Of a DNA stretch of 36,178 nt, positions 3,438 to 36,178 are shown one piece after another. Where the stretch lies: positions 1 through 36,178 of the forward strand of contig JBFLYA010000009.1 of assembly GCA_040757115.1 (NCBI GenBank), given 5' to 3'. Positions within the stretch are counted from its first letter, which is position 1; every line of letters begins with the position of its first letter. The notes below the pieces were generated by a model. That model ran no database searches. It saw only the letters and a program-made list of their open reading frames with translations, and had not been told where the DNA came from. Origin of the DNA: a bacterium (GTDB lineage Bacteria > UBA9089 > CG2-30-40-21 > SBAY01). Position numbers and translations under genes: made by a program.

Positions 3438-3778
3438 ATGAAAATTGTCAGGAATAAGATTTCTATAGCTGAACTAAATAATATGGCTCAGGAGATGTTT
3501 GGTAATTTGTAACTATTCACCGCAGAGACGCAGAGGAACAGAGAAAAAAGGATTTAAATTAGATTGTGGATACCGGATAGATCTTTTAGTTGAAGAAAAA
3601 GTTAAAAAGCAGTCGAGCAACTACTTCCGATTCACGAAGCTCAACTTTTAACCTATCTAAAAATGATGATAAGAGATGGAATTAAGCGTATAGCCAATAG
3701 ATTTTAATTTTTTCTCTGTGTCTCCGCGTCTCTGCGGTGAATAGTTACAAAATCATTAATAACCTGGTGGAAAGATGA
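3438..3778 (+). pseudogene. DUF5674-like gene whose middle is replaced by a TIR element
   Basis: 5' part MKIVRNKISIAELNNMAQEMFGNL stops at a TAA inside the TIR (3510-3512). After the element, KIINNLVER* (3749-3778) ends in an ATGA overlap with the next gene. Family recognised from memory. Confidence 0.6.
3509..3748. mobile_element. TIR element (GTAACTATTCACCGCAGAG...CTCTGCGGTGAATAGTTAC) with internally deleted GxxExxY remnant
   Basis: Long terminal inverted repeats; + strand fragments GFKLDCGYRIDLLVEEKV, KAVEQLLPIHEAQLLTYLKMM and RDGIKRIANRF*; no TSD. Confidence 0.88.
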
Positions 3779-4146
3779 AGTATCAACATAAACAATTAGC
3801 ACAAGGACGCTGGTTTGAATTGACCTTCTTCGAACAGATGGGTAATATTGGAACTGATGTTGGACGAGCAATTACCTGGAGAGATAAAAATATTGAATAT
3901 AGCCAGAAGGCAATTGACCGTGCATTAGAACTTTTAGAATTGACTATCGCTGATGTTAAGAATAGAAAAAGGTTAAAAGAGTTATTGAGGTTATATGAAG
4001 CATTGGTAGATTACTTCTATTTTGACAATCAGTTCTCTTCATCTGATAAATTGTGGCAAAACTATTTTTTTGCTTTTAGCTATGCCGCAATAAAAATGAA
4101 GGTAACCGTTCACCGCAGAGACACAGAGACGCAGAGAAAAAATTAA
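3775..4146 (+). CDS. Conserved hypothetical alpha-helical protein; C-terminus runs into a TIR element
   Basis: MKYQHKQLAQGRWFELTFFEQMGNIG...; the final residues VTVHRRDTETQRKN are read from the element starting at 4102. Confidence 0.7.
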   Translation: MKYQHKQLAQGRWFELTFFEQMGNIGTDVGRAITWRDKNIEYSQKAIDRALELLELTIADVKNRKRLKELLRLYEALVDYFYFDNQFSSSDKLWQNYFFAFSYAAIKMKVTVHRRDTETQRKN

Positions 4147-4360
4147 AAACTATTTACCAGACGCTTCATTCCATCCCTGATTTTCATCAGGGCAAGATCC
4201 TGATTTTCATCAGAGCAAGCTTTTGAGGACCGACATATCATGATTGATTAACAAATTTGGTTTTGTCTTATATATTACCTAATCTTTTCTGTTATCTGAT
4301 TTATTTCCATATCTTCTCTGTTCCTCTGCGTCTCTGCGGTGAAAACTATTTTCAGGAGAA
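4102..4360 (-). mobile_element. TIR-family element with minus-strand GxxExxY remnant, ending in an ATTTTCAGGAGAA junction
   Basis: GTAACCGTTCACCGCAGAG at 4102; minus strand MEINQITEKI (ATG at 4310) and RDGMKRLVNSF*; right arm ctctgcgtctctgcggtgaa followed by attttcaggagaa (4348-4360). Confidence 0.8.
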
Positions 4361-4364
4361 TAAT

Positions 4365-7300
4365 ATGACCAAATTAAAATCAGTTTCGGAATTAAACGCA
4401 TATCGAGAATCTATCATTAAAACTAAAGACCCTAACAAAATTTGTATTACTATTTGTGGTGGCACAGGATGTCTTGCCTTTGGGGCAGAAGGGGTTATTA
4501 GTGCCTTTCAAGAAGAAATTAAGAAACAAGGATTGAATAATGTAGATGTCATAAGAACTGGTTGTCCTGGCTTTTGTGAAAGAGGGCCGATTGTTGTTAT
4601 CCTGCCACAACGGATTTCATATCAAAAGGTTGCCATTGAAGATGTATCTGAAATAGTCTCTTCTACGATTATAAAAGGTGAGATTATCGAGCGACTGTTG
4701 TATGAAGACCCGTTAACAGGACATAAGATTATTTATGAACAAGAAATTCCTTTTTATAAAAAGCAGAAAAGGATACTTTTAAGTAATAGTGGCTTAATTG
4801 ATCCCACTCAGATAAATCATTATATTGAACGAAGTGGTTATTCTGCCTTAAGTAAAATTCTTACTTCTATGGCACCTGATAAGGTTATTGAGGAAGTTAA
4901 GAAGTCAGGTTTGCGTGGTAGAGGTGGGGGAGGTTTCCCTACTGGATTGAAATGGAGTTTCTGCCGAAAAGCAGAAGGTGAACCGAAGTATCTCATCTGT
5001 AATGCGGATGAGGGTGACCCTGGTGCTTTTATGGATCGAGCACTCCTTGAAGGCAATCCACATCTTGTCTTAGAAGGAATGCTTATCGCTGCCTATGCCA
5101 TTGGCTCAACAGAAGGATATGTTTATGTCCGGGCAGAATATCCTTTAGCCAGTAAGAATATCCGCCTTGCCTGCGACCAGGCAAAAGAATTAGGATTATT
5201 AGGTGATAATATTTTAGGCACAGATTTTAGCTTTCATCTGAAGATTAAAGAAGGGGCTGGGGCTTTTGTTTGTGGTGAAGAAACGGCTTTAATGGCTTCG
5301 ATTGAAGGCAAACGCGGTATGCCAAAACCAAGACCGCCATTCCCGGCTCAATCTGGACTTTGGGGCAAGCCAAGTAATATTAACAATGTCGAGACATTTG
5401 CCAATATCCCACATATCATTTTAAACGGGGGTGAAAATTATGCCCAAATCGGCACTGAGAAATCTAAAGGCACAAAGATATTTGCCTTAGCCGGCAAGAT
5501 AAATAACACCGGCCTGGTAGAAGTGCCAATGGGAACTATCTTACGAGAAGTGATTTTTGATATTGGCGGCGGTATCCCCAGAGGCAGGAAATTTAAGGCA
5601 GTGCAACTGGGTGGTCCTTCTGGTGGCTGTCTAACCTCTAAAGAATTGGATTTACCCATTGACTACGATACATTAGTTGCCGCTGGGGCAATGATGGGTT
5701 CTGGCGGTATGATTGTTATGGATGAAACTAATTGTATGGTAGAGATTGCTCGATTCTTCTTAGAATTTGTGCAAAGTGAATCTTGTGGTAAATGCACACC
5801 TTGTCGCATTGGCACTAAAAGAATGCTGGAGATAGTTACTCGAATTACCAGGGGAGAAGGTAGAGAAGAAGATATAGATACCTTGATAAAAATGGCTAAA
5901 ATCATAAAGGACTCTTCCCTTTGTGGCTTGGGACAAACCGCTCCCAATCCAGTGCTTTCTACGATTGAACATTTCCGGGATGAATATGAAATACATATCA
6001 AAGAAAAGCGATGTCCTGCCCATGTTTGTGAAGGACTTTATACCGCTCCTTGCACAGATACCTGTCCTGCCGGCATCAAGGTGCATAGTTATGTCGCTTT
6101 AATCGCCCAGGAAAGATTTGAAGAGGCATTGGAACTGATTAAAGAAAGTAATCCTTTCCCTTCGATTTGTGGTCGGGTGTGTCATCACCCCTGTGAAACT
6201 AAATGCAGACGAATAGAGATTGATGAAGCATTAGCCCTTAGAGCCCTAAAACGATTTGTTGCTGACCACGAAATAGAATTGGAAAAGGGAAGACATAGAC
6301 CAAAATTAGAATTTCATCGAACAGAAAGAGTGGCGATTATCGGAGCAGGACCAGCAGGATTAACCTGTGCCTATTATCTGGCAAGACGCGGTTATCAGAT
6401 AACCATATTTGAGGCATTAGAAACACCTGGTGGTATGCTGGCGGTTGGTATTCCCGATTACCGATTACCAAAGAGAATTCTAAAGATAGAAATAGCTGAT
6501 GTTACTGCATTAGGTGTAGAAATAAAGACAGAAACAAGAATTGGTAAGGATCTGGAGTTTTCTGACCTGCTAAGGGATTACAACGCTATTTTTATAGGTG
6601 TAGGAGCACATATCAGTAAAAAAATGGGAATTGAAGGAGAAGAGACAAATAAGGTCATACCTGCTCTGCAATTCTTACGGGATGTTAATCTTGGTAATCC
6701 AGTTGAATTAGGTGAAAAAATAGCCGTCATCGGTGGTGGTAATGCGGCTATTGATGCGGCAAGGGTTGCCATTAGACTTGGAGTCAGGGATGTAACTGTT
6801 CTTTACCGTCGCTCAAGAGAAGAGATGCCTGCTATCCCACAGGAAATTGAAGATGCGCAAGAGGAAGGGATTAAAATAGAGATTTTGACTGCCCCAAAAC
6901 GCATTATCTCTGAAAATGGTAAGGTCAAAGGTATTGAATGTTTCAGAATGAAATTAAGCGACTTTTTTGATAAAAGTGGTCGAAGGATTCCTGAACCAAT
7001 CAAAGACTCAGAATTTGTTGTGGATGTCGATATGGTTATTTCAGCCATCGGGCAGGATGTTAATGTTGATTTTCTACAGGATAGGGTAGAATTGAGTAAA
7101 TGGCAAACGATAAAGGTGGATAAAGAAACGCAAGCCACCAGTTTGGCAGGTGTTTTTGCTGGAGGTGATGCGGCTACTGGAGCGAATACGGTTATTGAGG
7201 CTATTGCGGCCGGCAATAGAGCCGCCATAGCCATTGATAAATACCTCAATAATGGTAAGGAAAGTAAAGAAGTCATCAGACATCCCATAGAGGAAGATGA

Positions 7301-7448
7301 AGAGGCGATGTTGAGAAGAAGACACCTGATGCCTGTATTAGAAAAGGAAAAAAGAATAAGGGGATTTGAAGAAGTAGAGTTAGGATTTACTCGCGAGATG
7401 GCAGTCAATGAGGCAAAAAGATGTCTAAAATGCCACGAAAAGGAGTAG
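4365..7448 (+). CDS. nuoF: NuoF/HydB-like FMN/NAD(H) subunit fused to a GltD/NfnB-like FAD/NADP(H) oxidoreductase
   Basis: N-terminal thioredoxin-like 2Fe-2S (CGGTGC, TGCPGFC); SGLRGRGGGGFPTG, CNADEGDPGAFMDR, GAGAFVCGEETAL, ESCGKCTPCRIG; then PCTDTCPAG, ICGRVCHHPCE, IGAGPAG, GGGNAAID, YRRS, EAKRCLKC. Start moved to ATG 4365 (RBS AGGAGA). Confidence 0.92.
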   Translation: MTKLKSVSELNAYRESIIKTKDPNKICITICGGTGCLAFGAEGVISAFQEEIKKQGLNNVDVIRTGCPGFCERGPIVVILPQRISYQKVAIEDVSEIVSSTIIKGEIIERLLYEDPLTGHKIIYEQEIPFYKKQKRILLSNSGLIDPTQINHYIERSGYSALSKILTSMAPDKVIEEVKKSGLRGRGGGGFPTGLKWSFCRKAEGEPKYLICNADEGDPGAFMDRALLEGNPHLVLEGMLIAAYAIGSTEGYVYVRAEYPLASKNIRLACDQAKELGLLGDNILGTDFSFHLKIKEGAGAFVCGEETALMASIEGKRGMPKPRPPFPAQSGLWGKPSNINNVETFANIPHIILNGGENYAQIGTEKSKGTKIFALAGKINNTGLVEVPMGTILREVIFDIGGGIPRGRKFKAVQLGGPSGGCLTSKELDLPIDYDTLVAAGAMMGSGGMIVMDETNCMVEIARFFLEFVQSESCGKCTPCRIGTKRMLEIVTRITRGEGREEDIDTLIKMAKIIKDSSLCGLGQTAPNPVLSTIEHFRDEYEIHIKEKRCPAHVCEGLYTAPCTDTCPAGIKVHSYVALIAQERFEEALELIKESNPFPSICGRVCHHPCETKCRRIEIDEALALRALKRFVADHEIELEKGRHRPKLEFHRTERVAIIGAGPAGLTCAYYLARRGYQITIFEALETPGGMLAVGIPDYRLPKRILKIEIADVTALGVEIKTETRIGKDLEFSDLLRDYNAIFIGVGAHISKKMGIEGEETNKVIPALQFLRDVNLGNPVELGEKIAVIGGGNAAIDAARVAIRLGVRDVTVLYRRSREEMPAIPQEIEDAQEEGIKIEILTAPKRIISENGKVKGIECFRMKLSDFFDKSGRRIPEPIKDSEFVVDVDMVISAIGQDVNVDFLQDRVELSKWQTIKVDKETQATSLAGVFAGGDAATGANTVIEAIAAGNRAAIAIDKYLNNGKESKEVIRHPIEEDEEAMLRRRHLMPVLEKEKRIRGFEEVELGFTREMAVNEAKRCLKCHEKE

Positions 7449-7950
7449 TTATTTAGCCACTGATTAACACGGATTAGTACGGATAAATACAGATGTCAGA
7501 AGATAGAAGGCAGAGGGCAGAAGGCAGAGGAGAAAGGGGGAAACAGAGAAAGGGAGAAATCTGTGTCCTCTGCGGTAAAATCTTGTGGACATTTTCAGGA
7601 GAAGTTTCACGCCAAGCACGCAAAGGAAAATAAGGGGAAAAATTACCTTTGCGTGAAAAAACTATTTTCAGGAGAAACGCTCATGTCCACAGGGAGTAGG
7701 CACAAACGAAGATGAAAATGGGTTTGATGGTTCAGGTGAAATCAGGCTGAAGCCTGCGGCTACCAGCTTTCCCGAACCCCGAGTCCCGAGTCCCGATTTT
7801 CAGGGGAAAGGAAGTTTCACGCAAAGAACGCAAAGAACGCAAAGGGAAATAAGGGAAAAAATTACCTTTGCGTCCTTTGCGTGAAAAAACTATTTTCAGG
7901 TCACGAATTTTCAGTATTTCATCCGTGTCCATCTGTGGCTAAATAGTTAC
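7445..7950. mobile_element. Composite TIR element containing a tandem array of hairpin modules ending in ATTTTCAGG(A/G)GAA
   Basis: Ends GTAGTTATTTAGCC (7445) and GGCTAAATAGTTAC (7950); junctions at 7591, 7664, 7796 and 7892; homologous to 27776-28131. Confidence 0.85.
7677..7801 (+). mobile_element. Asymmetric ACGCTCAT...GATGAAAAT...ATTTTC element flanked by AGGAGAA/AGGGGAA
   Basis: aggagaa|acgctcatg...cacaaacgaagatgaaaat...attttc|aggggaa; same ends as 21382-21735 and 29893-30010. Confidence 0.75.
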
Positions 7951-8012
7951 ATTTTCTATAGATAAATAGTTACGAAAATTTACTCTTCAAAACTGACCCT
8001 CAAAAAAATGTC

Positions 8013-12209: not shown

Positions 12210-13625
12210 ATGGTGATAAACTTGGAGGTTATAAAAAAATTTAAAAGATTAATTATTCCTTTAATTTTTATTTCTTTGTTTTTCCCAAAGATAGGACTGG
12301 GTGAAAATAATGGGACAATTAATGCCTATTGGCTCGGAGAAGCTCCCTGGTCGCCAAAAGAAACAGAAAACAGTATAAAATCTATTCTCCTTGATAATGA
12401 TAGGAGCAGAGATGACAAGTCACCGAGGTGGGTACCAGATAATAGAAGGATGGTGGTATATAAGAGAGAAAGAAAAGCAAAAATCTCAGAGGTGTCTGAT
12501 ATAAAAGAGGATAGAGTAGAAGACTCAGAACTGTCTGATATAGATGAAGATATAGCAAAAATCGCAGGAATATCTAATATACCTAACGATAAAACAGAAA
12601 GCCCAGAGTTGTGTTATATAGATGAGGATGGTGAAATTACTTCTCTATATGAAGGTGAGGTTAAGGATATTAGTTGGATACAGGACAAAGAAAAAGTAAG
12701 ATTTATCTTTACTTCTGGAAATGACCTGAAGAGTGGTGAAATTTCAACAGATAACCATATTTCATCTCTTCTTTCCATAGAAAAAAAGGTTACTAATGAG
12801 GGTATTGTCTATCTTCGTCATTCCAGAACAAAAAAATTATTTTATTCAAGAGATGGTCGTATAATAGGGACATCCACAAATATAGATGATAATGGTTGGA
12901 GTCCAATAGTAAATACAAATGGAGATTGTTCAAGAAATAAAAAGGTGGTGTTCACATCTAACTTAGATAGCAATGGTAGAGAAATCTACACCTTTGAATT
13001 ACCACAAGAAGGGGAAGATTTAGACCTATCAATAATAAGACGACTTACCTTTAGCCCTGAGGGAGTAATAAGTCCCAAATGGTCTCCAGATGGGAAAAGT
13101 ATTGTTTATGCTTCTGGTAAAGATATCTATCTTATCCAAAATATATCTACATCTGGGATGAACCCAATCCGATTGACCACGAATACTACTACCGACGAAT
13201 GTAGTAATCCTACCTTTTCACCAGATGGCAAAATGATTGCCTACTACTCGACTAATGGTAAAAACATATATGACTTATGGGTGATGAAAAGTAATGGAGA
13301 AGAAAGAACAAAGGTAGCAGATAATGTTCTTAAACCAGAAAGACACGGTGACATATATGGTCCTTGCTGGATACCTTATGGAACATCAGCTCTAATCTAT
13401 CTCTACAACAGAATGCAAAATCAGATAGAGGTTCTAAATGTCACAGCTAATAGCAGAAAGATGGTTAAAACAGAAGAACAGTTGATAAGTAATATTGATT
13501 CTCTTTATGTAAGTGATAAGGATGGTCAAAAAATCCTGATAGTATATTCTGCCTGGGCACCTTATCCTCAGAAAGAACAGAGGATATATATTAAAGAATT
13601 TAAAGCAGAAGAGTTACCAAGATAA
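12210..13625 (+). CDS. TolB-like (PD40/WD40-like) beta-propeller periplasmic protein
   Basis: Signal peptide; SPKWSPDGKSIVY, NPTFSPDGKMIAY, DLWVMKSNG. Confidence 0.85.
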   Translation: MVINLEVIKKFKRLIIPLIFISLFFPKIGLGENNGTINAYWLGEAPWSPKETENSIKSILLDNDRSRDDKSPRWVPDNRRMVVYKRERKAKISEVSDIKEDRVEDSELSDIDEDIAKIAGISNIPNDKTESPELCYIDEDGEITSLYEGEVKDISWIQDKEKVRFIFTSGNDLKSGEISTDNHISSLLSIEKKVTNEGIVYLRHSRTKKLFYSRDGRIIGTSTNIDDNGWSPIVNTNGDCSRNKKVVFTSNLDSNGREIYTFELPQEGEDLDLSIIRRLTFSPEGVISPKWSPDGKSIVYASGKDIYLIQNISTSGMNPIRLTTNTTTDECSNPTFSPDGKMIAYYSTNGKNIYDLWVMKSNGEERTKVADNVLKPERHGDIYGPCWIPYGTSALIYLYNRMQNQIEVLNVTANSRKMVKTEEQLISNIDSLYVSDKDGQKILIVYSAWAPYPQKEQRIYIKEFKAEELPR

Positions 13626-13635
13626 GGAGAGAAAT

Positions 13636-14985
13636 ATGCAAATTAAGCTATTATGGTCTATTATTATTCTTTGTCTTTACTCTGGTATAACTTATGGACA
13701 AAAATCACCAGAAAGTTATCAAAGGGGTCTACTCTATAAAGAATTATTTAATACCGCAGTAAATACACAAATTAATCATTATAATGCACTATTGATTGAG
13801 AAGGGAAAACCTCCTGTAGATGCAAAGCCAATAAGGAAAGACCATATCTGGTACTACCGCGGACTATGTTATTATTATCAGGGAAATTTCTTATCAGCAA
13901 TAGCTGATTTTAAACGAATTCCTAAATCATCTGATAAATACCCTGAGGCACAAATCAGATGGGGTGCCTGCTATTATAAACAAGGAAAGATTACGGAGGC
14001 AAAGAAATTATGGAATGATGCCTGTTCACAAAAGAAGAATAATCCTCTATTTTTAAGCAAGATGGGTAATCTGTATGCAGAGCTAGGGACAAATACTACT
14101 ACTGCGACTAAATATTGTCAGAAGACAGAAAAAGGAACAAGCGGGCTGGTGTGGATATACCTTAAGAATGGAGATGTAGATAAGGCGTTAGATTTGATAA
14201 AAAAGATTTCCAATAAGCCTGACTTAGAAGATTATATAGGTAGATGTACCGGTGGTAGTGTTACCTTACAGTTTTATGACCCTGGTTTATTATGGATAAG
14301 GTCACAGGTCTATCTTATGTCGGCAGTTAAATATTATCAACAGGCAATAGACTCGCAGAAGAATGATGAACTATCCTGTCAACTTGGTATAACTCAACTT
14401 ATGGCTGGCAGACTAAATGACAGTATTACCACGCTAAAACCACTCATCAATTCTAATAGATGGGAGGTAAAGGCTAAGGCATTGATAAATTTAGGCGTGG
14501 CATATTATCTAAAAGGTTCAAAACAAGAGGCTGAGACAACATGGAATCAGGTAGAGAATAATTACAAAGATAACCCTGCGGTGATGAGTGAATTAGGATA
14601 TACCTATGCGAGGTTGGGGATAAAGTTGGATGATGCTTTATCTCTGTGTAAGGAAGGAAAGGAATCGTATTACTTAGGCATGGTCTATTTTAAAAGAGGA
14701 GTAATAGGAAACAATAGTAACGATATTAACGAGGCATGTAATGAAATGGGGCATTTTGAAAGGGATTCTAATAATCTATTACATTTATTAGGGCTATGCA
14801 ATGCTTATTATGTGAATAGGGATTTTAATGCGGCTACGGAGATATTTTATAAATATCTTCAAAGATATTCTGGCACAAATAGAATTTATGAGAGTCTTCG
14901 GTATATAAACGAGGCACGGAAGGATATTACCTGGTTTGGCAACTTGAAAATTGAATGGAAAGACCTTTGGTATTACCAGAAATAA
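13636..14985 (+). CDS. Secreted tetratricopeptide-repeat protein
   Basis: Signal peptide; WYYRGLCYYYQGNFLSAIADF, ALINLGVAYYLKG, ELGYTYARLG. Confidence 0.85.
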   Translation: MQIKLLWSIIILCLYSGITYGQKSPESYQRGLLYKELFNTAVNTQINHYNALLIEKGKPPVDAKPIRKDHIWYYRGLCYYYQGNFLSAIADFKRIPKSSDKYPEAQIRWGACYYKQGKITEAKKLWNDACSQKKNNPLFLSKMGNLYAELGTNTTTATKYCQKTEKGTSGLVWIYLKNGDVDKALDLIKKISNKPDLEDYIGRCTGGSVTLQFYDPGLLWIRSQVYLMSAVKYYQQAIDSQKNDELSCQLGITQLMAGRLNDSITTLKPLINSNRWEVKAKALINLGVAYYLKGSKQEAETTWNQVENNYKDNPAVMSELGYTYARLGIKLDDALSLCKEGKESYYLGMVYFKRGVIGNNSNDINEACNEMGHFERDSNNLLHLLGLCNAYYVNRDFNAATEIFYKYLQRYSGTNRIYESLRYINEARKDITWFGNLKIEWKDLWYYQK

Positions 14986-20087: not shown

Positions 20088-21373
20088 AAAGATACTTGAT
20101 AGTAATTACTGTTATCTTATTGGGAATGAATAATTATGGATTTTGTGGTGAGTTGTACAAGGAAGGGAAAGAAAAATTAGAAAAAGGCATAATTAATCTG
20201 GAGATGTTTAAACAAGCAGTTTCTTTTGCGTTTCAAAATAAAAAAATAGGTAAGATTAGAAATTGCATAAAGGACATCAAAGATACAGAAAGATTTTCAG
20301 CTTTCTTAGCACTTTCTGGTAACAGTGGTTATCCCTATAGTACTTCCATCAATACTTACTGGATAACTATCGGTCAAGTCTTAAATGAAGCGAAGGAATA
20401 TTTTGGAACGATAGCTCCTGAATCTGTAAATGCCTGCTTATATAAGGCAATTGCTTGTGTCAAGATGGGAGATTATCAAGAAGCATTACATCCATTTAAA
20501 AAAGTTATAACCGCTATGACAAATGGAAATTGTATTATTGAACCTTACTGGAAAATAAAGATAGATGAGTATAAGGATTCTTCATTCAAAAAAAAGTATA
20601 TGTATAAACAAAACTATATGATAGATGCAGTCCAGGAGTTATTTTATGAGATGGCTGATAAAGTAATGAATAGGGAATTGGATATGGGAGGCGAAAAAAG
20701 CTATGATGAATGGGCAAAGATGATAATTAATGTGTTTATGGATTACAGGGAAAGCTGGCTACAAGAAAAAAGACAGACACAAGATATAATTAGCAAAAGG
20801 CTCGATAACAGTTTTGAACTGGTAGATTTCTACATTAGACATCATAAATGTAACGAGGCTAAAAAAGAACTTGGGGAAGTAAAAAAGAAACTAACAGGAA
20901 TAGGGATAGATACTACAAACACAATTCCTACCAAAGAAAAAGAGATAGCAAGATTACAAGAAATTTCAGTAGTAATGAGTGAAGAATTAGTAAAAGAAGT
21001 TAACGGAAAGGTAAAAATAAGATTCTGGAATGATGAAAATTGGTTTAAACCTGAATACTTAGATCTTTCGTTTCTCCCGAAAGGATGTTATCTTAACTTT
21101 AAACCCGACTATTCTTATGAATGTCCTGATATGGGTGGCACACAGACCATTTATCTTAACACCCAGACGACAAAGCCTACTTGTGAAATATTCTCTCAGT
21201 CGCCCATCAAGGTTATGGTAGATGGTAAATCTTATCCCTCTAAAGATGGTACCGTTACTATCTCTCATTTTACTGGAAAAGAAATAGAGATTATCGAGGC
21301 AACTATGAATGTTATCAAGTTGATTACCTATGTTGAAACAGGGATAGGAATTATATGGTTCTTTATAAAATAA
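20084..21373 (+). CDS. Secreted TPR-containing hypothetical protein with hydrophobic C-terminus
   Basis: Signal peptide; LYKAIACVKMGDYQEALHPF; terminal VETGIGIIWFFIK. Confidence 0.7.
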   Translation: MKRYLIVITVILLGMNNYGFCGELYKEGKEKLEKGIINLEMFKQAVSFAFQNKKIGKIRNCIKDIKDTERFSAFLALSGNSGYPYSTSINTYWITIGQVLNEAKEYFGTIAPESVNACLYKAIACVKMGDYQEALHPFKKVITAMTNGNCIIEPYWKIKIDEYKDSSFKKKYMYKQNYMIDAVQELFYEMADKVMNRELDMGGEKSYDEWAKMIINVFMDYRESWLQEKRQTQDIISKRLDNSFELVDFYIRHHKCNEAKKELGEVKKKLTGIGIDTTNTIPTKEKEIARLQEISVVMSEELVKEVNGKVKIRFWNDENWFKPEYLDLSFLPKGCYLNFKPDYSYECPDMGGTQTIYLNTQTTKPTCEIFSQSPIKVMVDGKSYPSKDGTVTISHFTGKEIEIIEATMNVIKLITYVETGIGIIWFFIK

Positions 21374-21381
21374 AAGGAGAA

Positions 21382-21735
21382 ACGCTCATGCCCCTGCAGG
21401 GCACAAAGGGGGGATGAAAATGGTAGCCGCAGGCTTATTGCTTTTTCATAAATAGGTTCCTCTTTTGGGGAGAGCGATAGCAAGAAGAACTTTAATGTAA
21501 ATATCAAAATGCAAATATCAAAATTACAATGCAAAATGCAAAAATACTTGTAAATTAACAAAGTAGCTGGAGAATATTTTGATTTTTGATTTGTAATTTT
21601 ACATTTTGATGTTTGATTTTTAATTTATTTTATGGTATTCCAGAAAAGTGGAAGTTAATTTTGCAAAAACCATTAGCCTGCGTAGGTTGAAACGCAGACT
21701 AAAGTCTGCGACTACCAGCCTTACAGGCTATTTAC
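21382..21735 (+). mobile_element. Nested element: AGGAGAA-flanked element > REP doublet > REP-loop insertion > heptamer palindrome
   Basis: AGGAGAA at 21375-21381 and 21736-21742; REP-like GGTAGCCGCAGGCTT|TAGCCTGCG...CGCAGACTAAAGTCTGCGACTACC (21422-21716); insertion at 21437-21673. Confidence 0.85.
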
Positions 21736-21746
21736 AGGAGAACGAG

Positions 21747-24029
21747 ATGAAATGTAAGAAGTTTAAGATTTTATTGTTAACTATAATTGTCCTTCTTTTG
21801 AAGGCAACTGTGGGATTTTCAGCGTTGGATATCGATGTTATTTCACCTGATGGGGGAGAGGTATGGTCAGGAGGAACATATAAGGAGATAATCTGGAAAA
21901 TATCCGATGGGACACCTACTTATACAATTGAATTGAAATATTCTACAGATGGGGGTAATTCATTCCCTTATGATATAGGGACCACTACCCAAACCGCAAT
22001 TGGAACAGGAACATATAACTGGTTAGTGCCAACCTCTGATTTAACAAATGTGAAGATAATGGTGATGGCTACCGATAGTGCTACACCTACCCCTAATATA
22101 GGTACTACTACATCTCAAGGAACATTTACTATTGATGCCACACCACCAAATGTTCTCTTAAATCTCTATATCCCAGACCCAACTGATGATAATACACCTA
22201 CTTATACCGGAACAGTTACTGATAGCACAACAAAGGTTGTAGATATAGAGTATAAGGTTGATAGTGGAGGTTGGACAGATGTTGACTCATTTATTCCAGC
22301 CGCTACTGCTGCCTTTACCTTTACTACCTCTTCATTATCTGATGGACCGCATACCATCACTGTCAGGGCAAAGGATGAGGCAGGGAACTGGGGGACTTCG
22401 ACTCCAGATACATTGGTGGTTGATACCACAGGACCAATTTCCCAAGTTAATGCTATTACCCCATACTGGCATAATATTGGAACTTTTACTCTCTATTATG
22501 GTGCCAGTGATAATTTAGGACTTGGTTCAATAACGCTCTGGTATAGATATCGTGTGAGTCTTACAACTCCATGGACAGATTGGTCATCCTTTACTACCAG
22601 GTATATATCTGGGACATCTGCCATAGGGAATTTCTCCTTTACCCATCCAGAGCAAGAGGGCTACTATGACTTCTATACAATAGCAGATGATTCTGCTGGC
22701 AATAAGGAATTAGTTCCGCCAACTAAAGATGCAGAGGCAGGTTATGATAAAACACCACCCACCATCCCCTCAAATACATTATTGAGACCAAATGGAGGAG
22801 AGTTATTCATGGGAAATTCTATACAAGAGATACGGTGGAATAATGAAATAATTGGAGATACTCTAAGTGGATTAGGTACATATTCAATAAATTTAAAGTA
22901 TAGCACTGATGGTGGAATGTCATATCCAGAGACAATAACAATGGTTAGCTTACCAAAAGGTAATGGTATAGGAACATATTGTTGGACAGTTCCTATGATT
23001 GAGTGTGACAATGTAAAGGTAGCGATAATAGTAACAGATAATGCAGGCAATCCCGGGACAGATACAAGTAATGGGACATTCGTGATAAGTAGTATTGCTC
23101 CCACATTAAAAATAGATGTTCCTAATGGAGGTGAAAACTGGAGAGGTGGAACAAATCAGATTATAAAATGGTCAACAACAGGAAGTGGTATAAACCATCT
23201 GAAAATATGGTATTCTACAAATGGTGGGGGAACATATACTCAAATTAATGGTACTCTTTCTAATATAGGCACATATAGTTGGACATGCCCAACTATTGAT
23301 TCAAATCAAGTGAAAATAAAGATAACAATATACGATATTGAAGATAAAGAGTTATCAACAGATGAAAGTGATAATAACTTCATTATAGATAGTACTTCAC
23401 CCACTATTGAAAATCTTCGACCGAGTAACGAAATTGTTAATGACCTGCCTGTAATCTCTGCCTGGTTAAGAGATATAGGGGCAATAGCAAATAGCGGGAT
23501 AGGGTCAATTACTGTCTGGATTGATAACTCTGAGACTAACATTAGAATGATAAACTTTGATTCAAATAAATCTCAGAAAACTTTTGAAGGTAATAATCTT
23601 ACTGCTACTCTAAAAAATCCTTTATCTGCGGGTTTGCATGAAGTTAAAGTATGGGTATGTGATAAGGCAGGTAATTCAGCCGCCACAGCAAGCACTACCT
23701 TTACCGTTTCTAACGAACCGGGTATCATTGACCTGATAAACTATCCAAATCCTTTTTCAACCGATGAAAAGACCATTATTAAATATACTCTTGGACGAGA
23801 TTCCAGAGTAACTATTAACATCTATGATATTTCTTTAGAATGGATGATCAGTCTAATTGAAGATGCTGATAGAACAACAGGAACACATAAAGAAAACTGG
23901 TATGGGCAAAACGCCATTGGCGAAAAATTGCCTAATGGTGTTTATATTTGTGAATTGATAGTTAAAGAGAAAAATGCAGGTACGGAACACAAAAAATATC
24001 ATAAGATAGCAATATATACTTCGAAATAA
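21747..24029 (+). CDS. Secreted Ig-like repeat protein with C-terminal T9SS-CTD/FlgD-Ig-like domain
   Basis: Repeated (S/R/V)P(D/N)GGE...W...YST(D/N)GG and D.AGN modules; C-terminal NYPNPF...IKYTL...VTINIYD...WYGQN..GEKLPNGVYI; start moved to ATG 21747 (RBS AGGAGA). Confidence 0.85.
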   Translation: MKCKKFKILLLTIIVLLLKATVGFSALDIDVISPDGGEVWSGGTYKEIIWKISDGTPTYTIELKYSTDGGNSFPYDIGTTTQTAIGTGTYNWLVPTSDLTNVKIMVMATDSATPTPNIGTTTSQGTFTIDATPPNVLLNLYIPDPTDDNTPTYTGTVTDSTTKVVDIEYKVDSGGWTDVDSFIPAATAAFTFTTSSLSDGPHTITVRAKDEAGNWGTSTPDTLVVDTTGPISQVNAITPYWHNIGTFTLYYGASDNLGLGSITLWYRYRVSLTTPWTDWSSFTTRYISGTSAIGNFSFTHPEQEGYYDFYTIADDSAGNKELVPPTKDAEAGYDKTPPTIPSNTLLRPNGGELFMGNSIQEIRWNNEIIGDTLSGLGTYSINLKYSTDGGMSYPETITMVSLPKGNGIGTYCWTVPMIECDNVKVAIIVTDNAGNPGTDTSNGTFVISSIAPTLKIDVPNGGENWRGGTNQIIKWSTTGSGINHLKIWYSTNGGGTYTQINGTLSNIGTYSWTCPTIDSNQVKIKITIYDIEDKELSTDESDNNFIIDSTSPTIENLRPSNEIVNDLPVISAWLRDIGAIANSGIGSITVWIDNSETNIRMINFDSNKSQKTFEGNNLTATLKNPLSAGLHEVKVWVCDKAGNSAATASTTFTVSNEPGIIDLINYPNPFSTDEKTIIKYTLGRDSRVTINIYDISLEWMISLIEDADRTTGTHKENWYGQNAIGEKLPNGVYICELIVKEKNAGTEHKKYHKIAIYTSK

Positions 24030-29730: not shown

Positions 29731-29739
29731 AATGGCAAT

Positions 29740-30079
29740 GTAACTATTCACCACGAAGAGCACGAAGGACACGAAATGGAATTTAAGGTCTTGTAATTTT
29801 CGGTAGTGTCTGACAATAACTACAATTCTTTTAACCACAAAGATCACAAAGAATTTCACAAAAGAGTCAAAGATTTTTGAGAGAATAAATTTTTTCCTGA
29901 AAATAGGCTGAAGGGTATAGGCTGAAGTTTTGAACGCTGTTTCCTTCAGCCTTAAGCCTTCAGCCTTTATTTTCATCCTCCTTTGTGAGTCAGAGACTTA
30001 TGAGCGTTTCTTTGTCTACTTTGTGGTTAATTTCAGAGACCATCTAATTTTCTTCGTGTTCTTCGTGGTGAATAGTTAC
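29740..30079. mobile_element. TIR element (GTAACTATTCACCACGAAG...CTTCGTGGTGAATAGTTAC) with nested elements
   Basis: Perfect 19-bp TIRs; inner aaccacaaag/ctttgtggtt palindrome; reverse-oriented ACGCTCAT element at 29893-30010; orphan right end CTGAACGGTTAC at 30141-30152. Confidence 0.88.
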
Positions 30080-30189
30080 ATTCAATCTTAACAGAACACT
30101 ATAATCTTTGCGTTCTTTGCGGTTAAAAGTGGCTATACCCCTGAACGGTTACAAAAACTGACTACGGGGATAGAACCTACCCTGGCTGA

Positions 30190-33100
30190 TTAATCCCCCA
30201 ATTCCTTTAGTTCAAACAAACTCAGGGTAGTATTCAGATTGGCAGTTAAAATGGTCTCCTGCTTAAGCGGATGGATGGCTATTCCTCTCGGTATCCAGGG
30301 AAGGTTGATGGTCTTCAGACATTCGCCGCTGGCTACCTCCCAGAGCTTTAAGGTCTTATCCCAGGAGGCAGAGAGGATGTATTTACCATCACCAGAAAAT
30401 ATGCCACTAAAAACTTCAGCTGAATGCCCCTTGAAGGTGCGAACCTCCTGACCCGTCTCTTTATCCCAAAGCTTTAAGGTCTTATCACTTGAGGCAGAGA
30501 GGATGTATTTACCATCACCAGAAAATACGCCACTTGTAACTGTAGCTGAATGCCCCTTGAAGGTGCAAACCTCCTGACCCGTCTCTTTATCCCAGAGCTT
30601 TAAGGTATTATCCAAGGAGGCAGAGAGGATGTATTTACCATCACCAGAAAATACGCCACTTGTAACTTCATATGAATGCCCCTTGAAGGTGCGAACCTCC
30701 TGACCCGTCTCTTTATCCCAGAGCTTTAAGGTTTTATCCCTTGAGGCAGAGAGGATGTATTTACCATCACCAGAAAATACGCCACTTGTAACTTCAGCTG
30801 AATGCCCCTTGAAGGTGCGAACCTCCTGACCCGTCTCTTTATCCCAGAGCTTTAAGGTATTATCCCAGGAGGCAGAGAGGATGTATTTACCATCACCAGA
30901 AAATACGCCACTTCTAACTTCAGCTGAATGCCTCTTGAAGGTGCGAACCTCCTGACCCGTCTCTTTATCCCAGAGCTTTAAGGTCTTATCACTTGAGGCA
31001 GAGAGGATGTATTTACCATCACCAGAAAATACGCCACTCCAAACTCTAGCTGAATGCCCCTTGAAGGTGTGAACCTCCTGACCCGTCTCTTTATCCCGGA
31101 GCTTTAAGGTATTATCACTTGAGGCAGAGAGGATGTATTTACCATCACCAGAAAATACGCCACTTGTAACTCCAGCTGAATGTCTAAGGTTAGGGGAGCC
31201 AAAGAAACCCACCAGTTCAGGTATTAAAGTAGCGTAGTAATTAAAGTGTTTATCATCAGCATCATATTCCTTTGAATCTAACTGAAGGATATTCTCGAGT
31301 CCTGTTGGGAGAACCTTTTCTTCTTTTCTGCGTAAGTTTCGCTTTTCTGTCTTCCAGTCCTCAATGAGGCGGAAATAGACCATCTGCTCCAATAAGGTAT
31401 CCCTTGATGCGGCTAACTCAGGTTCTGCCTCAAATAAGGAATAATCCAGTTTAGAGAGTAATTCCCTATCTTCAAACCTGCTGGTGGCATTGAAGACACT
31501 GGCATATTCCTTGAGCTTACCGGGGTCATTTTCTCCAAGATAATTAGTAAATCGTGTCAGGAATTTATCCTTGACTGCTTTAAAATCATTGATGAGAGAT
31601 TGGTGGCTGCGGATAAGGATTTTGTTTCTATAATCATCAGTCTGGTCACGAATAAACCCCTCTGCCTCTATCAAAATACGAAGCCCCATTCCATCCCTCT
31701 GCAACTGCTTACTGACTTGGTCATCCTTTTCCAGAGCAGAGATTGCCTTTTTTAGATTCTCAAATGATAAGGCAGAAAATAAGGGAAGAATCTCTAATGG
31801 GAATAATCCCTCATTAGTCATAAATTCATGAAAACGGTTTAAAAACTCATCTTCTGCTATTTTTGCCAGCCTTCTTGCGGCAAGAAATTCTAAGACAGAG
31901 AGATGGATAAAGGTATAGAAATTTGGTGCCTGAGTAATCCTGAGGAGGAAGTAACCTTCAATCAGATTCTTTAAGAGGTCATCAGCACTACTCCCAGCAG
32001 GTATAGTAGTGAATTGCTTGAGGATGTTGAGGATGACATCTTCCTTAAACCGAGAGACAAAACCTTCCCGATAGCCCTGAACTGCATGCCAGACCACCTC
32101 CTCTAAGGCATTGATTAAGGATGATAGTTCCTTATCATTTTCAATTGCCCTGGGGTCAAGGGTGAGATTAAATACTTCATCAATAGATTTTTGAAAATCA
32201 GGGTTCTTCAACCTATCCCAGATTCTGAGGAGGATAAATAAGGTGATAAAATGGAGTATAGTTGGTCTTCTGGCAAACTCACCTTTCTTTTTAAACCAGA
32301 CCAGCACAAGGGTAGCTAATAGTGGAGTGTTGGCGATTAAGGCGACAACCTCTTGCTGGTTTACTGATGCCTGATTGAATTTTTGTAATAACTTTTTCTT
32401 TCCTTCAAAGAACTTCCTGCCCAGGTCTTGAAATTGGTCAACAGCAAGGGGATTGACAGAGGCAAGAAGGACATCTTCAGAGATTTCAAAAAAGGTGTGG
32501 TCGCGAGCAGTCAGGTAAATATGGGATTCAGGAGTAGATTTAAACCATAACTCGACCTTGTTTAATATCTGTTTCTGCTGAGATGTATTAGTCACCTCAT
32601 CCAGGGCATCAAGGCAAAAGATTGCCTTTCCTCGACTTGCCCATTCTCTAACTGTTTCTGCCATTTTAGCCAGAGTTTGCTTCTCTTCAGCAGTGAGCTC
32701 CTTGTAACTCCTGCCGGGATAGATAAAAGCAGAGGTGACCAGGTCAACCAGAAACCCTTTTATATCTTTTTCTGAAGCGTAAGGGTAGTCCTGCTCCCAT
32801 TGTTCAATATTGGGAATGGTGTGGCAGGGAATAAAGATGGGATATTTATCACTGTTAAATCCTTGAAAGCAGAAATACTTAAGTATAGTTGTCTTACCAA
32901 CACCTGGTATCCCTTTGATAAAGAGGTGTGGACGACGCTCATAGATTTCATCACACTTCAGGAGATCTTTTTGTTCTGCTTTTTGAGCCTTCTGCCTGCC
33001 ATACTTCTGAAAGTCGATGATATCCCATTCTTCTCTTCTTTCTTCTGATAGAACCGGGGCAGTTAATCTCAATTCTATGAACTGGTCTTCCATATTCAAG

Positions 33101-33813: not shown

Positions 33814-34342
33814 GTATAACCGTTCAGCCCTATATTATTTTCTGACAGGATTAACAGGATAAGATTTTATGTAACTATTCACCACGAAGAGCACGAAGGA
33901 CACGAAGATTGGACAAGACAAATCTTTTTATGCTTTCTTTCAACCTTTCTACATTGAAATTTAGTAACTATTCACCATTCACAATTCACAATTCACCATT
34001 CACAATTTTTCCCCTAAATTTCCTTAATAATGGTGAATGGTGAATTGTCAATTGTCAATTGTGAATTATCACTCTTCACGGTGTCAAGCAAACCTGGCCC
34101 AAGAGTTCGATGCACCGCTATAGCGCATCCAATGACTCTATTCGATAATTCATCAAATTTCACTTCGTGTCCTTCGTGGTTTAATCTCTTTTAGTCTAAC
34201 AAGGCAATAGGTTGTTCACCAGCGTTTTTTTTCCTTTCTTTGCGTCCTTTGCGAAATCTTCCTTTGTGCCCTTTGCGGTTAAATCTTTATACCCTTTATT
34301 CTTCTGATGTATCATCCGTTTCGCAATACCCTGAACGCTTAC
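33814..34342. mobile_element. Composite nested TIR element between the NLR-like gene and its putative promoter, with split GxxExxY remnant
   Basis: Left (GT)ATAACCGTTCAG, right CTGAACGCTTAC, flanked by AGTAAAA on both sides; inner left ends at 33871 and 33964; minus strand KFDELSNRVIGCAIAVHRTLGPGLL (GTG 34163) and LNFNVERLKESIKRFVL. Confidence 0.82.
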
Positions 34343-35951: not shown

Positions 35952-36178
35952 GTAACCGTTCAGGGATATAGCCACAGAGTCACAGAGAACACAGAGGGAA
36001 TATATAACCACGAATGAACACGAATAATAAAAAGATTTGTAGTGCGAGGCGTTAGCCTCGCTTCTGGCAAGCAGGAAAGCGAACCTAATTGCTTTTTCAT
36101 AAATAGGTTCCTCTTTTGGGGAGAGCGATAGCAAGAAGAACTTTAATGTAAATATCAAAATGCAAATATCAAAATTAC
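35952..36178. mobile_element. TIR element (truncated by window end) containing a REP doublet with loop insertion
   Basis: GTAACCGTTCAG at 35952; REP-like GTAGTGCGAGGCGTTAGCCTCGC at 36039-36061; 36088-36178 identical to 21437-21527. Confidence 0.8.

Follow-up and report, generated by a model that had tools for sequence, protein, structure and literature searches.

A gene-less repeat bounded by Shine–Dalgarno motifs in a groundwater bacterium: a probable non-autonomous mobile element with relatives in other phyla

The DNA analysed here, referred to as the window, is the 36,178-nt stretch at positions 1–36,178 of contig JBFLYA010000009.1, from a groundwater metagenome-assembled genome (MAG; GCA_040757115.1) of 4.32 Mb in 462 contigs with 36.8% G+C, labelled G000. 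At 21382–21735 on the plus strand it carries a 354-nt element that is bounded on both sides by the Shine–Dalgarno motif AGGAGAA and belongs to a family of repeats dispersed through the genome. Upstream lies a 429-aa open reading frame (ORF) without a match in Pfam, itself preceded by two ABC-ATPase genes; downstream lies the gene of a 760-aa protein with bacterial Ig-like domains (Pfam). Positions 21371–21749 read TAA-a-AGGAGAA / ACGCTCATG-GCCCCTGCAGGGC-ACAAA-GGGGGG-ATGAAAAT ... CTATTTAC / AGGAGAA-cgag-ATG. The stop codon of the 429-aa ORF occupies 21371–21373, and the left AGGAGAA (21375–21381, +), identified as the target-side motif by the flank statistics given below, follows one nucleotide later. 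The element begins with ACGCTCATG at 21382 and terminates with ATTTAC at 21735, after which the right AGGAGAA (21736–21742), together with cgag and the ATG at 21747, forms the ribosome-binding site (RBS) and start of the 760-aa protein gene (21736–21749, +). These coordinates and flanks had been proposed in an earlier note, made by a model from the letters alone, and all of them hold.

The left module (21382–21421, +) comprises ACGCTCATG, a small hairpin (hp1; 21390–21402, GCCCCTGCAGGGC) recognised by the covariation of its stem among copies, ACAAA, GGGGGG and ATGAAAAT. The right end, CTATTTAC (21728–21735, +), is a variant of CTATTTTC and supplies the 3′ arm of a 7-nt inverted repeat with ATGAAAAT. 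Between them, the cargo hairpin is split at the centre of its palindrome, GCAGG^CCTGC, by a nested 243-nt repeat of another family (21434–21676, +), which is represented by 14 full-length copies of at least 98% identity and has a k-mer depth ~26–140 times that of its flanks. The interval 21382–21735 had been read as a single element; its ends and flanks stand, but 243 of its 354 nt are the nested repeat, leaving a basic unit of ~111 nt at this locus. No Rfam family reached its gathering score anywhere in the window, and permissive Rfam scans of eight loci of other phyla and of window positions 7400–8000 returned only generic miRNA-like hairpins far below threshold.

Genome-wide, the family is built from a recurrent unit of the form AGGAGAA / ACGCTCATG, hp1, CACAAA-NNNN-GATGAAAAT, a variable hairpin cargo and (C)TATTTTC / AGGAGAA. 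The genome contains 124 ACGCTCAT sites, 79 of which are followed by N(8–20)-CACAAA (hereafter strict copies) and 59 of which extend to GATGAAAAT; a relaxed pattern recovers 199 modules at ~155 loci, comprising 124 single units and 31 arrays of two to five. Adjoining modules share the same orientation in 53 pairs and are opposed in four, and 38 of the 79 strict copies directly follow the ATTTTCA-type right end of another unit, giving a head-to-tail junction of the form ATTTTCAGGAGAA/ACGCTCATG. The basic unit measures ~110–175 nt. Counted from where the module stops, the right end lies at a median distance of 106 nt and never farther than 678 nt in the 131 of 141 units that have one inside 3 kb, which leaves no room for a transposase-sized ORF in any of the 141 units examined. 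No recombinase is encoded in the window or inside any of these units, which agrees with the earlier expectation that the enzyme lies outside the window.

Two hairpins give the unit its architecture. The first, hp1, lies between CAT and ACAAA and is represented by 85 distinct inserts with at least eight unrelated stems (for instance GCCCAC/GTGGGC, GAGTC/GACTC, GAACC/GGTTC, GACGGC/GCCGTC and GCCGAC/GTCGGC), in which the uninterrupted outer stem averages 4.0 bp compared with 0.72 bp in shuffled sequence. The second, hp2, has a conserved base, TGAAAAT/ATTTTCA, and a loop that holds the variable cargo; its interiors fall into about ten cargo families with simple-repeat stems, freely combined with the hp1 types. 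Terminal inverted repeats are absent, the left end ACGCTCATG being unlike the reverse complement of the right end (CCTGAAAAT), and the sole inverted pair is TGAAAAT/ATTTTCA, whose left arm lies ~33–40 nt inside the element. Each unit also contains AGGAGAA-N8-ATG and AAAGGAGGATG motifs. The module was rejected as coding sequence on the ground that its frame is not conserved, hairpins of 13 and 17 nt shifting the mini-ORF. Likenesses to hammerhead ribozymes, k-turn or box C/D motifs, dif/Xer sites and attC sites were dropped by eye, their defining core nucleotides being absent.

The sequence into which the units are set is strongly constrained. GG[AG]GAA stands directly 5′ of 61 of the 79 strict copies and, when only unique (non-repeat) left flanks are counted, at 36 of 41, compared with a background of 6.8e-4 per position; the 41 flanks give, from −7 to −1, A33 G37 G39 A36 G40 A41 A41. 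The genome-wide AGGRGAA enrichment that the earlier note had predicted is thus present. Of the 677 right ends matching ATTT[TA][CT]AGG, 93 lead directly into another module, whereas 104 lie 5–13 nt before the start of an ORF of at least 60 codons, mostly as ATTTTCAGGAGAA-N(3–8)-ATG. Viewed from the genes, 54 of 426 GG[AG]GAA motifs situated 2–10 nt before an ORF of at least 100 codons are preceded by an element right end. The left and right hexamers of a unit are identical in 46 of 129 cases, where 36.8 would be expected (p = 0.024), and in 14 of 37 single units (p = 0.04), including matching rare variants such as GAAGAA/GAAGAA and GGTGAA/GGTGAA. Variants of the right end go with the type of cargo.

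Filled and empty alleles were compared between G000 and the other genome of its genus, G001, which is 94–99% identical to it in shared regions. Fourteen G001 module loci and one from a further genome of the phylum, G003, yielded three clean filled/empty pairs. In each, the empty allele contains one AGGAGA(A) 4–10 nt before an ATG, the empty site predicted in the earlier note and treated there as the decisive result, and the filled allele has the motif on each side of the element. The first pair consists of taaAGGAGAA/ACGCTCATG...(138 nt)...ATTTTC/AGGAGAAcgtaATGAATG in G001 (C216; right junction also given as ATTTTCAGGAGAAcgtaATG) and caaAGGAGAAacatgATGAATG, also given as caaAGGAGAAacatgATG, in G000 (C419). 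The second consists of ttGGAGAA/ACGCTCATG...(116 nt)...ATTTTC/AGGAGAAagaATG in G001 (C394; right junction also given as CAGGAGAAagaATG) and ttGGAGAAaagaATG in G000 (C411). In the third, G001 (C51) has two reversed units between two copies of the motif, the left one of which reads AGCAGAA, and G000 (C150) reads CAGGAGAAgatacctcaATG. At a fourth locus, G001 reads caagtaAAGGAGAAaaaaattATG (C57; short form AAGGAGAAaaaaattATG), and G000 (C405) carries 2.7 kb of extra DNA ending in a three-unit array, ...ATTTTTAGGAGAAattATG. Contigs of three groundwater DNA runs from one study gave no joints, and thus no population-level evidence of empty sites or circles.

Further copies within the window conform to the same pattern. 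A second one (7670–7808, +) consists of AGGAGAA at 7670–7676, a unit at 7677–7801 and AGGGGAA at 7802–7808, stands head-to-tail with adjoining units, and has a module that is also present in G001. Immediately before it, following ATTTTCAGGAGAA, lies a module-less unit, GTTTCACGCC...CTATTTTC (7604–7669, +), that is missing at the orthologous site of G001; downstream of the NuoF-like gene, G000 thus has a single 66-nt module-less unit between ATTTTCAGGAGAA and the shared module, and the difference between the genomes would amount to the gain or loss of one unit. The third copy is reversed (~29897–30007, −); its flanks, CAAAGAA / GGAAAA, are degenerate, and its left module has ATA where ATG would stand. 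Finally, the right end of another hairpin repeat, CTATTTTC-AGGAGAA-taat-ATG (4346–4367, +), forms the RBS of a NuoF-like/GltD-like fusion gene encoding 1027 aa (Pfam), upstream of which G001 has ...aatGGAGAAaattaatATG and no repeat. The two extra copies and the NuoF-like gene's repeat-derived RBS had been reported earlier, and all three are real.

Other repeats are abundant in the window. The 243-nt family recurs at 36085–36178, and its copies always split the centre of a short palindrome (GCGAAC^GTTCGC, GCAGG^CCTGC or GCGAGG^CCTCGC), so that it appears to be a second site-specific element, targeting hairpin tips. Additional foldback families occupy 2210–2481, 3506–3751, 4102–4350, 29737–30082 and 33860–34073, with conserved ends GTAAC(T/C)(A/G)TTCACC...GGTGAA(T/C)(A/G)GTTAC and stems of short simple repeats (GCAGAGAC, CACGAAG, ATTCACAA). 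The division of the assembly into 462 contigs is attributable to such intergenic mosaics of nested repeats. A distinct tandem array, seven copies with a 126-nt period (30212–31267), lies inside a minus-strand gene for a 1198-aa WD40-repeat protein.

The module is not confined to the genus. Across 25 genomes of the phylum it was found in three only, namely G000 (29 strict hits), G001 (14) and G003 (1), a patchy presence as expected of a horizontally acquired element. Outside the phylum, with one genome scanned per species, 17 loci were recovered in nine genomes: three or four Nitrospirota MAGs, a Syntrophaceae MAG (six loci), a Syntrophus MAG, a Pseudomonadota MAG, an unclassified MAG and the isolate Anaerosolibacter carboniphilus DSM 103526. 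A looser pattern gave 25 copies in five of these genomes, and environmental metagenome contigs carry more. In these lineages the unit takes the form (A/G)TGAAA/CGCTCATG-hp1-CACAAAGGGGGATGAAAAT-hairpin-ATTTTCAG-(A/G)TGAAA, the smallest being ~75 nt, and one array contains five short units. NTGAAA, mostly ATGAAA, flanks these relatives: among 34 distinct units from other phyla and environmental contigs, the left hexamer is ATGAAA in 21, GTGAAA in four and another NNGAAA in nine. This NTGAAA motif is the start codon of a gene in a minority of cases, the right-hand RTG opening an ORF of at least 60 codons in nine of the 21 units with a recognisable right end; two of the encoded N-termini we take by eye to be FabD-like (VKKAAYIFPGQGSQ) and phosphoglycerate-mutase-like (MKYIVIVGDGMGD). 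Aligned in register, the two lineages show a single-base difference, found in left flank and right end alike: CAGG-T-GAAA versus CAGG-A-GAA(A). In A. carboniphilus, a cultured member of the Clostridia, one apparent minimal unit (NZ_JACHEN010000039.1:34495-34937) stands just after a terminator-like hairpin. Metagenome matches to GAAACGCTCATG-N-CACAAAG (at least 120 loci) were mostly one conserved coding sequence of gut assemblies that is unrelated to the element, a warning for motif-only scans, and none of the environmental units among the metagenome matches listed is long enough for a gene.

The module is itself the target of a high-copy insertion sequence (IS), at least 24–25 copies of which are visible at contig ends of G000 (for example C11:1-183, C197:4300-4833 and C53:1-140). 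Its left junctions (25 contig ends) break the module after CACAAAG with TCTTATGGTGAAATGTCAAG..., and its right junctions (24 contig starts) return from ...ATATATTATACGAG to GA(C/G)GATGAAAAT; 23 of the 25 left junctions (after CACAAAG) and 22 of the 24 right junctions (before GA(C/G)GATGAAAA) lie in modules, and the four outside them lie in AAAG/GAGG-like sequences, two just upstream of an ATG. The dinucleotide AG, CT on the other strand, is present at both junctions. The interior of the IS is absent from the G000 assembly, every copy stopping ~100–190 nt from a contig end. A 42-residue stretch from C197 is 98% identical to residues 258–299 of a 412-aa protein with PF01548 and PF02371; Pfam gave no match for a 50-aa fragment of the IS taken alone. 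Used as a query in the genomes of the family, the near-identical 412-aa protein found at best a relative of only 43% identity, in G001, whose element begins tacctc-ct-cgTATAAT, the same kind of site. Read in recombinase orientation, the IS closes on the right with ...TTGACATTTCACCATAAGA and opens on the left with CGTATAAT, so that a circle junction with one CT would read TTGACA-17 nt-TATAAT, a promoter. PMC11208160 describes IS110 elements as lacking inverted repeats, targeting repeats by oriented site-specific insertion, and having a CT core across which a promoter is rebuilt. Judged by its predicted DEDD and Transposase_20 domains, its lack of inverted repeats, its CT core and its putative junction promoter, the nested IS is a member of this family. 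Its target within the module is the RBS-like CACAA[AG]GAGGATGAAAAT; it thus lands on the module's internal RBS mimic (CACAAAGGAGGATGAAAAT) and is a second-order parasite of the repeat family. The left non-coding end of the IS (~300 nt) contains about eight 9-mers resembling DnaA boxes (TTATCCACA-like) and two copies of TTGTGG, a match to the target sequence on the right-hand side of the core.

Collectively, the family is discrete, is set at a defined target motif that is regenerated beyond its right end, has no coding capacity, shows hairpin covariation and occurs in several phyla. We consider it probable that it is a non-autonomous mobile element without terminal inverted repeats, moved in trans, that integrates in one orientation at AGGAGA(A) and has the motif on both sides. 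The empty sites and the flank statistics support the earlier proposal of a discrete, site-specific, non-autonomous element that uses the RBS as a safe harbour. In the mechanism that we envisage, the element would integrate in a single orientation at a Shine–Dalgarno-like AGGAGA(A), and since the product bears the motif on both sides, the downstream gene would keep an RBS at normal spacing; further copies could then land on either motif, generating the head-to-tail arrays. A recombinase encoded elsewhere would act in trans, probably on single-stranded DNA, recognising the conserved single-stranded segments and the two hairpins. The landing site may be chosen by its likeness to the element's own 3′-terminal hexamer, GGAGAA in this genus and (A/G)TGAAA in the other phyla, a rule suggested by the single-base difference that the lineages share in left flank and right end.

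Several observations weigh against this interpretation. The three filled/empty pairs come without an outgroup, so that insertion and precise loss would look alike in them. Their junctions also slide within the repeat, and this ambiguity by rotation makes a target-site duplication inseparable from an element-borne terminal motif: an element ending in AGGAGA(A) that inserted 3′ of AGGAGA(A) would fit as well as a duplicated AGGAGA. At 21382 itself there is no orthologous empty site, the flanks having no DNA match in 30 relatives and the protein encoded upstream having matches in none of five (G001–G005). The left and right hexamers are unlike in 83 of the 129 units. Within hp1, 20 G-T pairs compared with 33 A-C mismatches give no strand signal for RNA or single-stranded DNA, and one unit folded as RNA was no more stable than shuffled sequence (z = 0.39). 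No recombinase is linked to the element, and neither G000, nor five other genomes, nor the loci from one scan each of genome and metagenome contigs yielded an autonomous copy, all of these being fragmented assemblies; the long enzyme-encoding copy for which the earlier note had suggested looking did not emerge from these or from the 141 units. PCR for circular junctions, which it had also suggested, would give ambiguous results, since the same junction exists within head-to-tail arrays.

A broader reading, which we offer tentatively, is that the units across phyla belong to one undescribed integration system, in which a trans-acting recombinase mobilises DNA with two hairpins, probably in single-stranded form, and the terminal hexamer sets the site. 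Such a system would have been retargeted from start codons ((A/G)TGAAA, as in the Nitrospirota and Syntrophia-type genomes among others) to Shine–Dalgarno motifs (GGAGAA, in this genus), rebuilding each, and a bridge-RNA IS would use the unit's internal RBS mimic.

Among the alternatives, movement of the unit as a palindrome-associated element of the IS200/IS605 type, by a Y1 HUH transposase that acts on single-stranded DNA and inserts 3′ of a fixed penta- or hexanucleotide, the right motif being the element's own end, is unlikely. Asymmetric ends, a subterminal hairpin near each, and insertion in one orientation next to a fixed short motif left standing at the left flank are features of that family; the junctions fit insertion 3′ of GGAGAA(A) by an element ending in GGAGAA, and right-end variants are associated with cargo type. 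The Y1 transposase domain PF01797 occurs in G000, in G001 and in all five other element-bearing genomes searched, seven of seven, but it also occurs in 18 of the 25 genomes of the phylum and is therefore not discriminating. None of the seven PF01797 loci of G000 is flanked by modules, and no adjacent TnpA or TnpB gene was found. IS608-type ends carry similar left and right hairpins, whereas hp1, with its variable GC-rich stem, is unlike hp2 with its TGAAAAT/ATTTTCA base; moreover, the motif reappears at the right end of the unit, and comparison of the GGAGAA with the TGAAA lineage revealed no compensatory change of a guide-like kind. In G000 (C430, ~12900–14200), copies of a 37-nt CRISPR-repeat-like sequence (GTGCGAATAATAGACCTGATGAATAAGGGATTGCGAC) flank a short Y1-transposase-like gene (PF01797, 56 bits).

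The earlier note had pointed to IS110/IS1111-type recombination, and a deletion derivative of such an element, that is, a MITE (miniature inverted-repeat transposable element) mobilised by a DEDD recombinase whose bridge or seeker RNA is programmed for the RBS motif, seems improbable. The guide RNAs of these recombinases are described in PMC11208160 and PMC11187229. The resemblance lies in the absence of terminal inverted repeats, strict site-specificity, a single orientation and a preference for repeats, as PMC11208160 reports for IS110; TTCTCC, the reverse strand of the repeat, contains CT, the genome has several IS110 genes, and the module is physically linked with an IS110 element of high copy number. 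That element, however, inserts into the module and has ends of its own, CTCGTATAAT...CCATAAGA, which differ from those of the unit. The termini of the unit (ACGCTCATG or ATTTTCAGG) were found at none of five IS110 loci examined (four in G000, one in the sister genome), and the four PF01548 loci of G000 have no flanking modules; indeed, no PF01548 or PF01797 gene adjoining a module was found in the element-bearing genomes searched. PF01548 does not track the element either: within the phylum, 13 of 25 genomes have this domain and three of 25 have the element, and the domain occurs in only two of five element-bearing genomes of other phyla, a comparison weakened by MAG incompleteness. The repeat flanking the unit is, furthermore, 6–7 nt long rather than a 2-nt core. 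The attribution to IS110/IS1111 is thus not supported.

We give little credence to an origin without a dedicated enzyme, in which units would spread and be lost as abundant short motifs (RBS or ATGAAA) recombine or undergo template switching through microhomology, with the hairpins assisting. In its favour, the most frequent conserved motifs of intergenic regions are those that form the repeats, copies mix module and cargo types, no transposase was found, and two genomes of 97–98% identity differ at ATTTTCAGGAGAA junctions by the gain, loss or partial deletion of units; against this, orientation and junction are uniform, and a 45-nt module is conserved in its nucleotides across phyla while its hairpin stem covaries, which argues for recognition by a specific machine. 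Barely plausible is a cis-acting translation leader of RBS-like motifs, mini-ORF and hairpin, kept by selection and copied with genes: every unit does contain AGGAGAA-N8-ATG and AAAGGAGGATG and the right end is the RBS or start codon of ~100 genes, but the mini-ORF frame is not conserved, units form arrays and adjoin genes that are unrelated to one another, orthologues function where the unit is missing, and no Rfam family matches.

Compared with described systems, the probable Shine–Dalgarno-homing element resembles several and coincides with none. Like bacterial MITEs and small intergenic repeats such as Correia (CREE), RUP and ERIC, it is short, gene-less, multicopy, intergenic and hairpin-forming, and can supply signals to neighbouring genes. 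It differs from them in lacking terminal inverted repeats (its one 7-nt inverted pair has an internal arm) and a known parent insertion sequence, in its fixed 6–7-nt RBS-motif flanks, which replace a TA or random duplication, in its strictly oriented insertion and in the conservation of its module across phyla. A classical DDE-derived MITE shares its small size, lack of ORFs and high copy number, but would have terminal inverted repeats and a parent insertion sequence, neither of which was found. Where such a MITE would have a target-site duplication of fixed length, AGGAGA(A) of 6–7 nt stands on both sides in the three filled alleles and once in the empty ones; left and right hexamers agree in only 46 of 129 units, and the junctions can be rotated. 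Integron cassettes and their attC sites likewise combine a hairpin site, conserved ends, a centre of variable length, a short core flanking both sides and head-to-tail arrays; in the present element, however, the core is not paired with an inverse core, GGAGGA 5′ and GGAGAA 3′ of hp2 being alike rather than complementary, the units are spread over ~155 loci with gene-less cargo, and no integrase platform is evident, although integrases were not searched for. Rickettsia palindromic elements are also selfish inserts that persist by leaving host gene expression intact, but they do so inside coding sequence, whereas the present element occupies the initiation signal, which it restores. In the full-text literature, with subscription journals and supplements outside the search, no description of an RBS- or start-codon-homing repeat was found, and AAACGCTCATG did not occur in full-text papers among the matches listed.

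This would be the first documented bacterial element that integrates at the translation-initiation signal itself and restores it, and because it does restore that signal, more than 100 copies could stand directly before genes without silencing them. About 13% of the GG[AG]GAA-type RBSs of the genome (54 of 426) are element-borne, which matters for annotation, and intergenic arrays of units disrupt short-read assemblies. The nested IS110 element would provide a natural case of a bridge-RNA recombinase that targets an RBS-like sequence. At the level of the family, a 45-nt two-hairpin module shared across phyla with no linked enzyme points to an undiscovered recombinase–substrate pair, the specificity of which may be easily reprogrammed.

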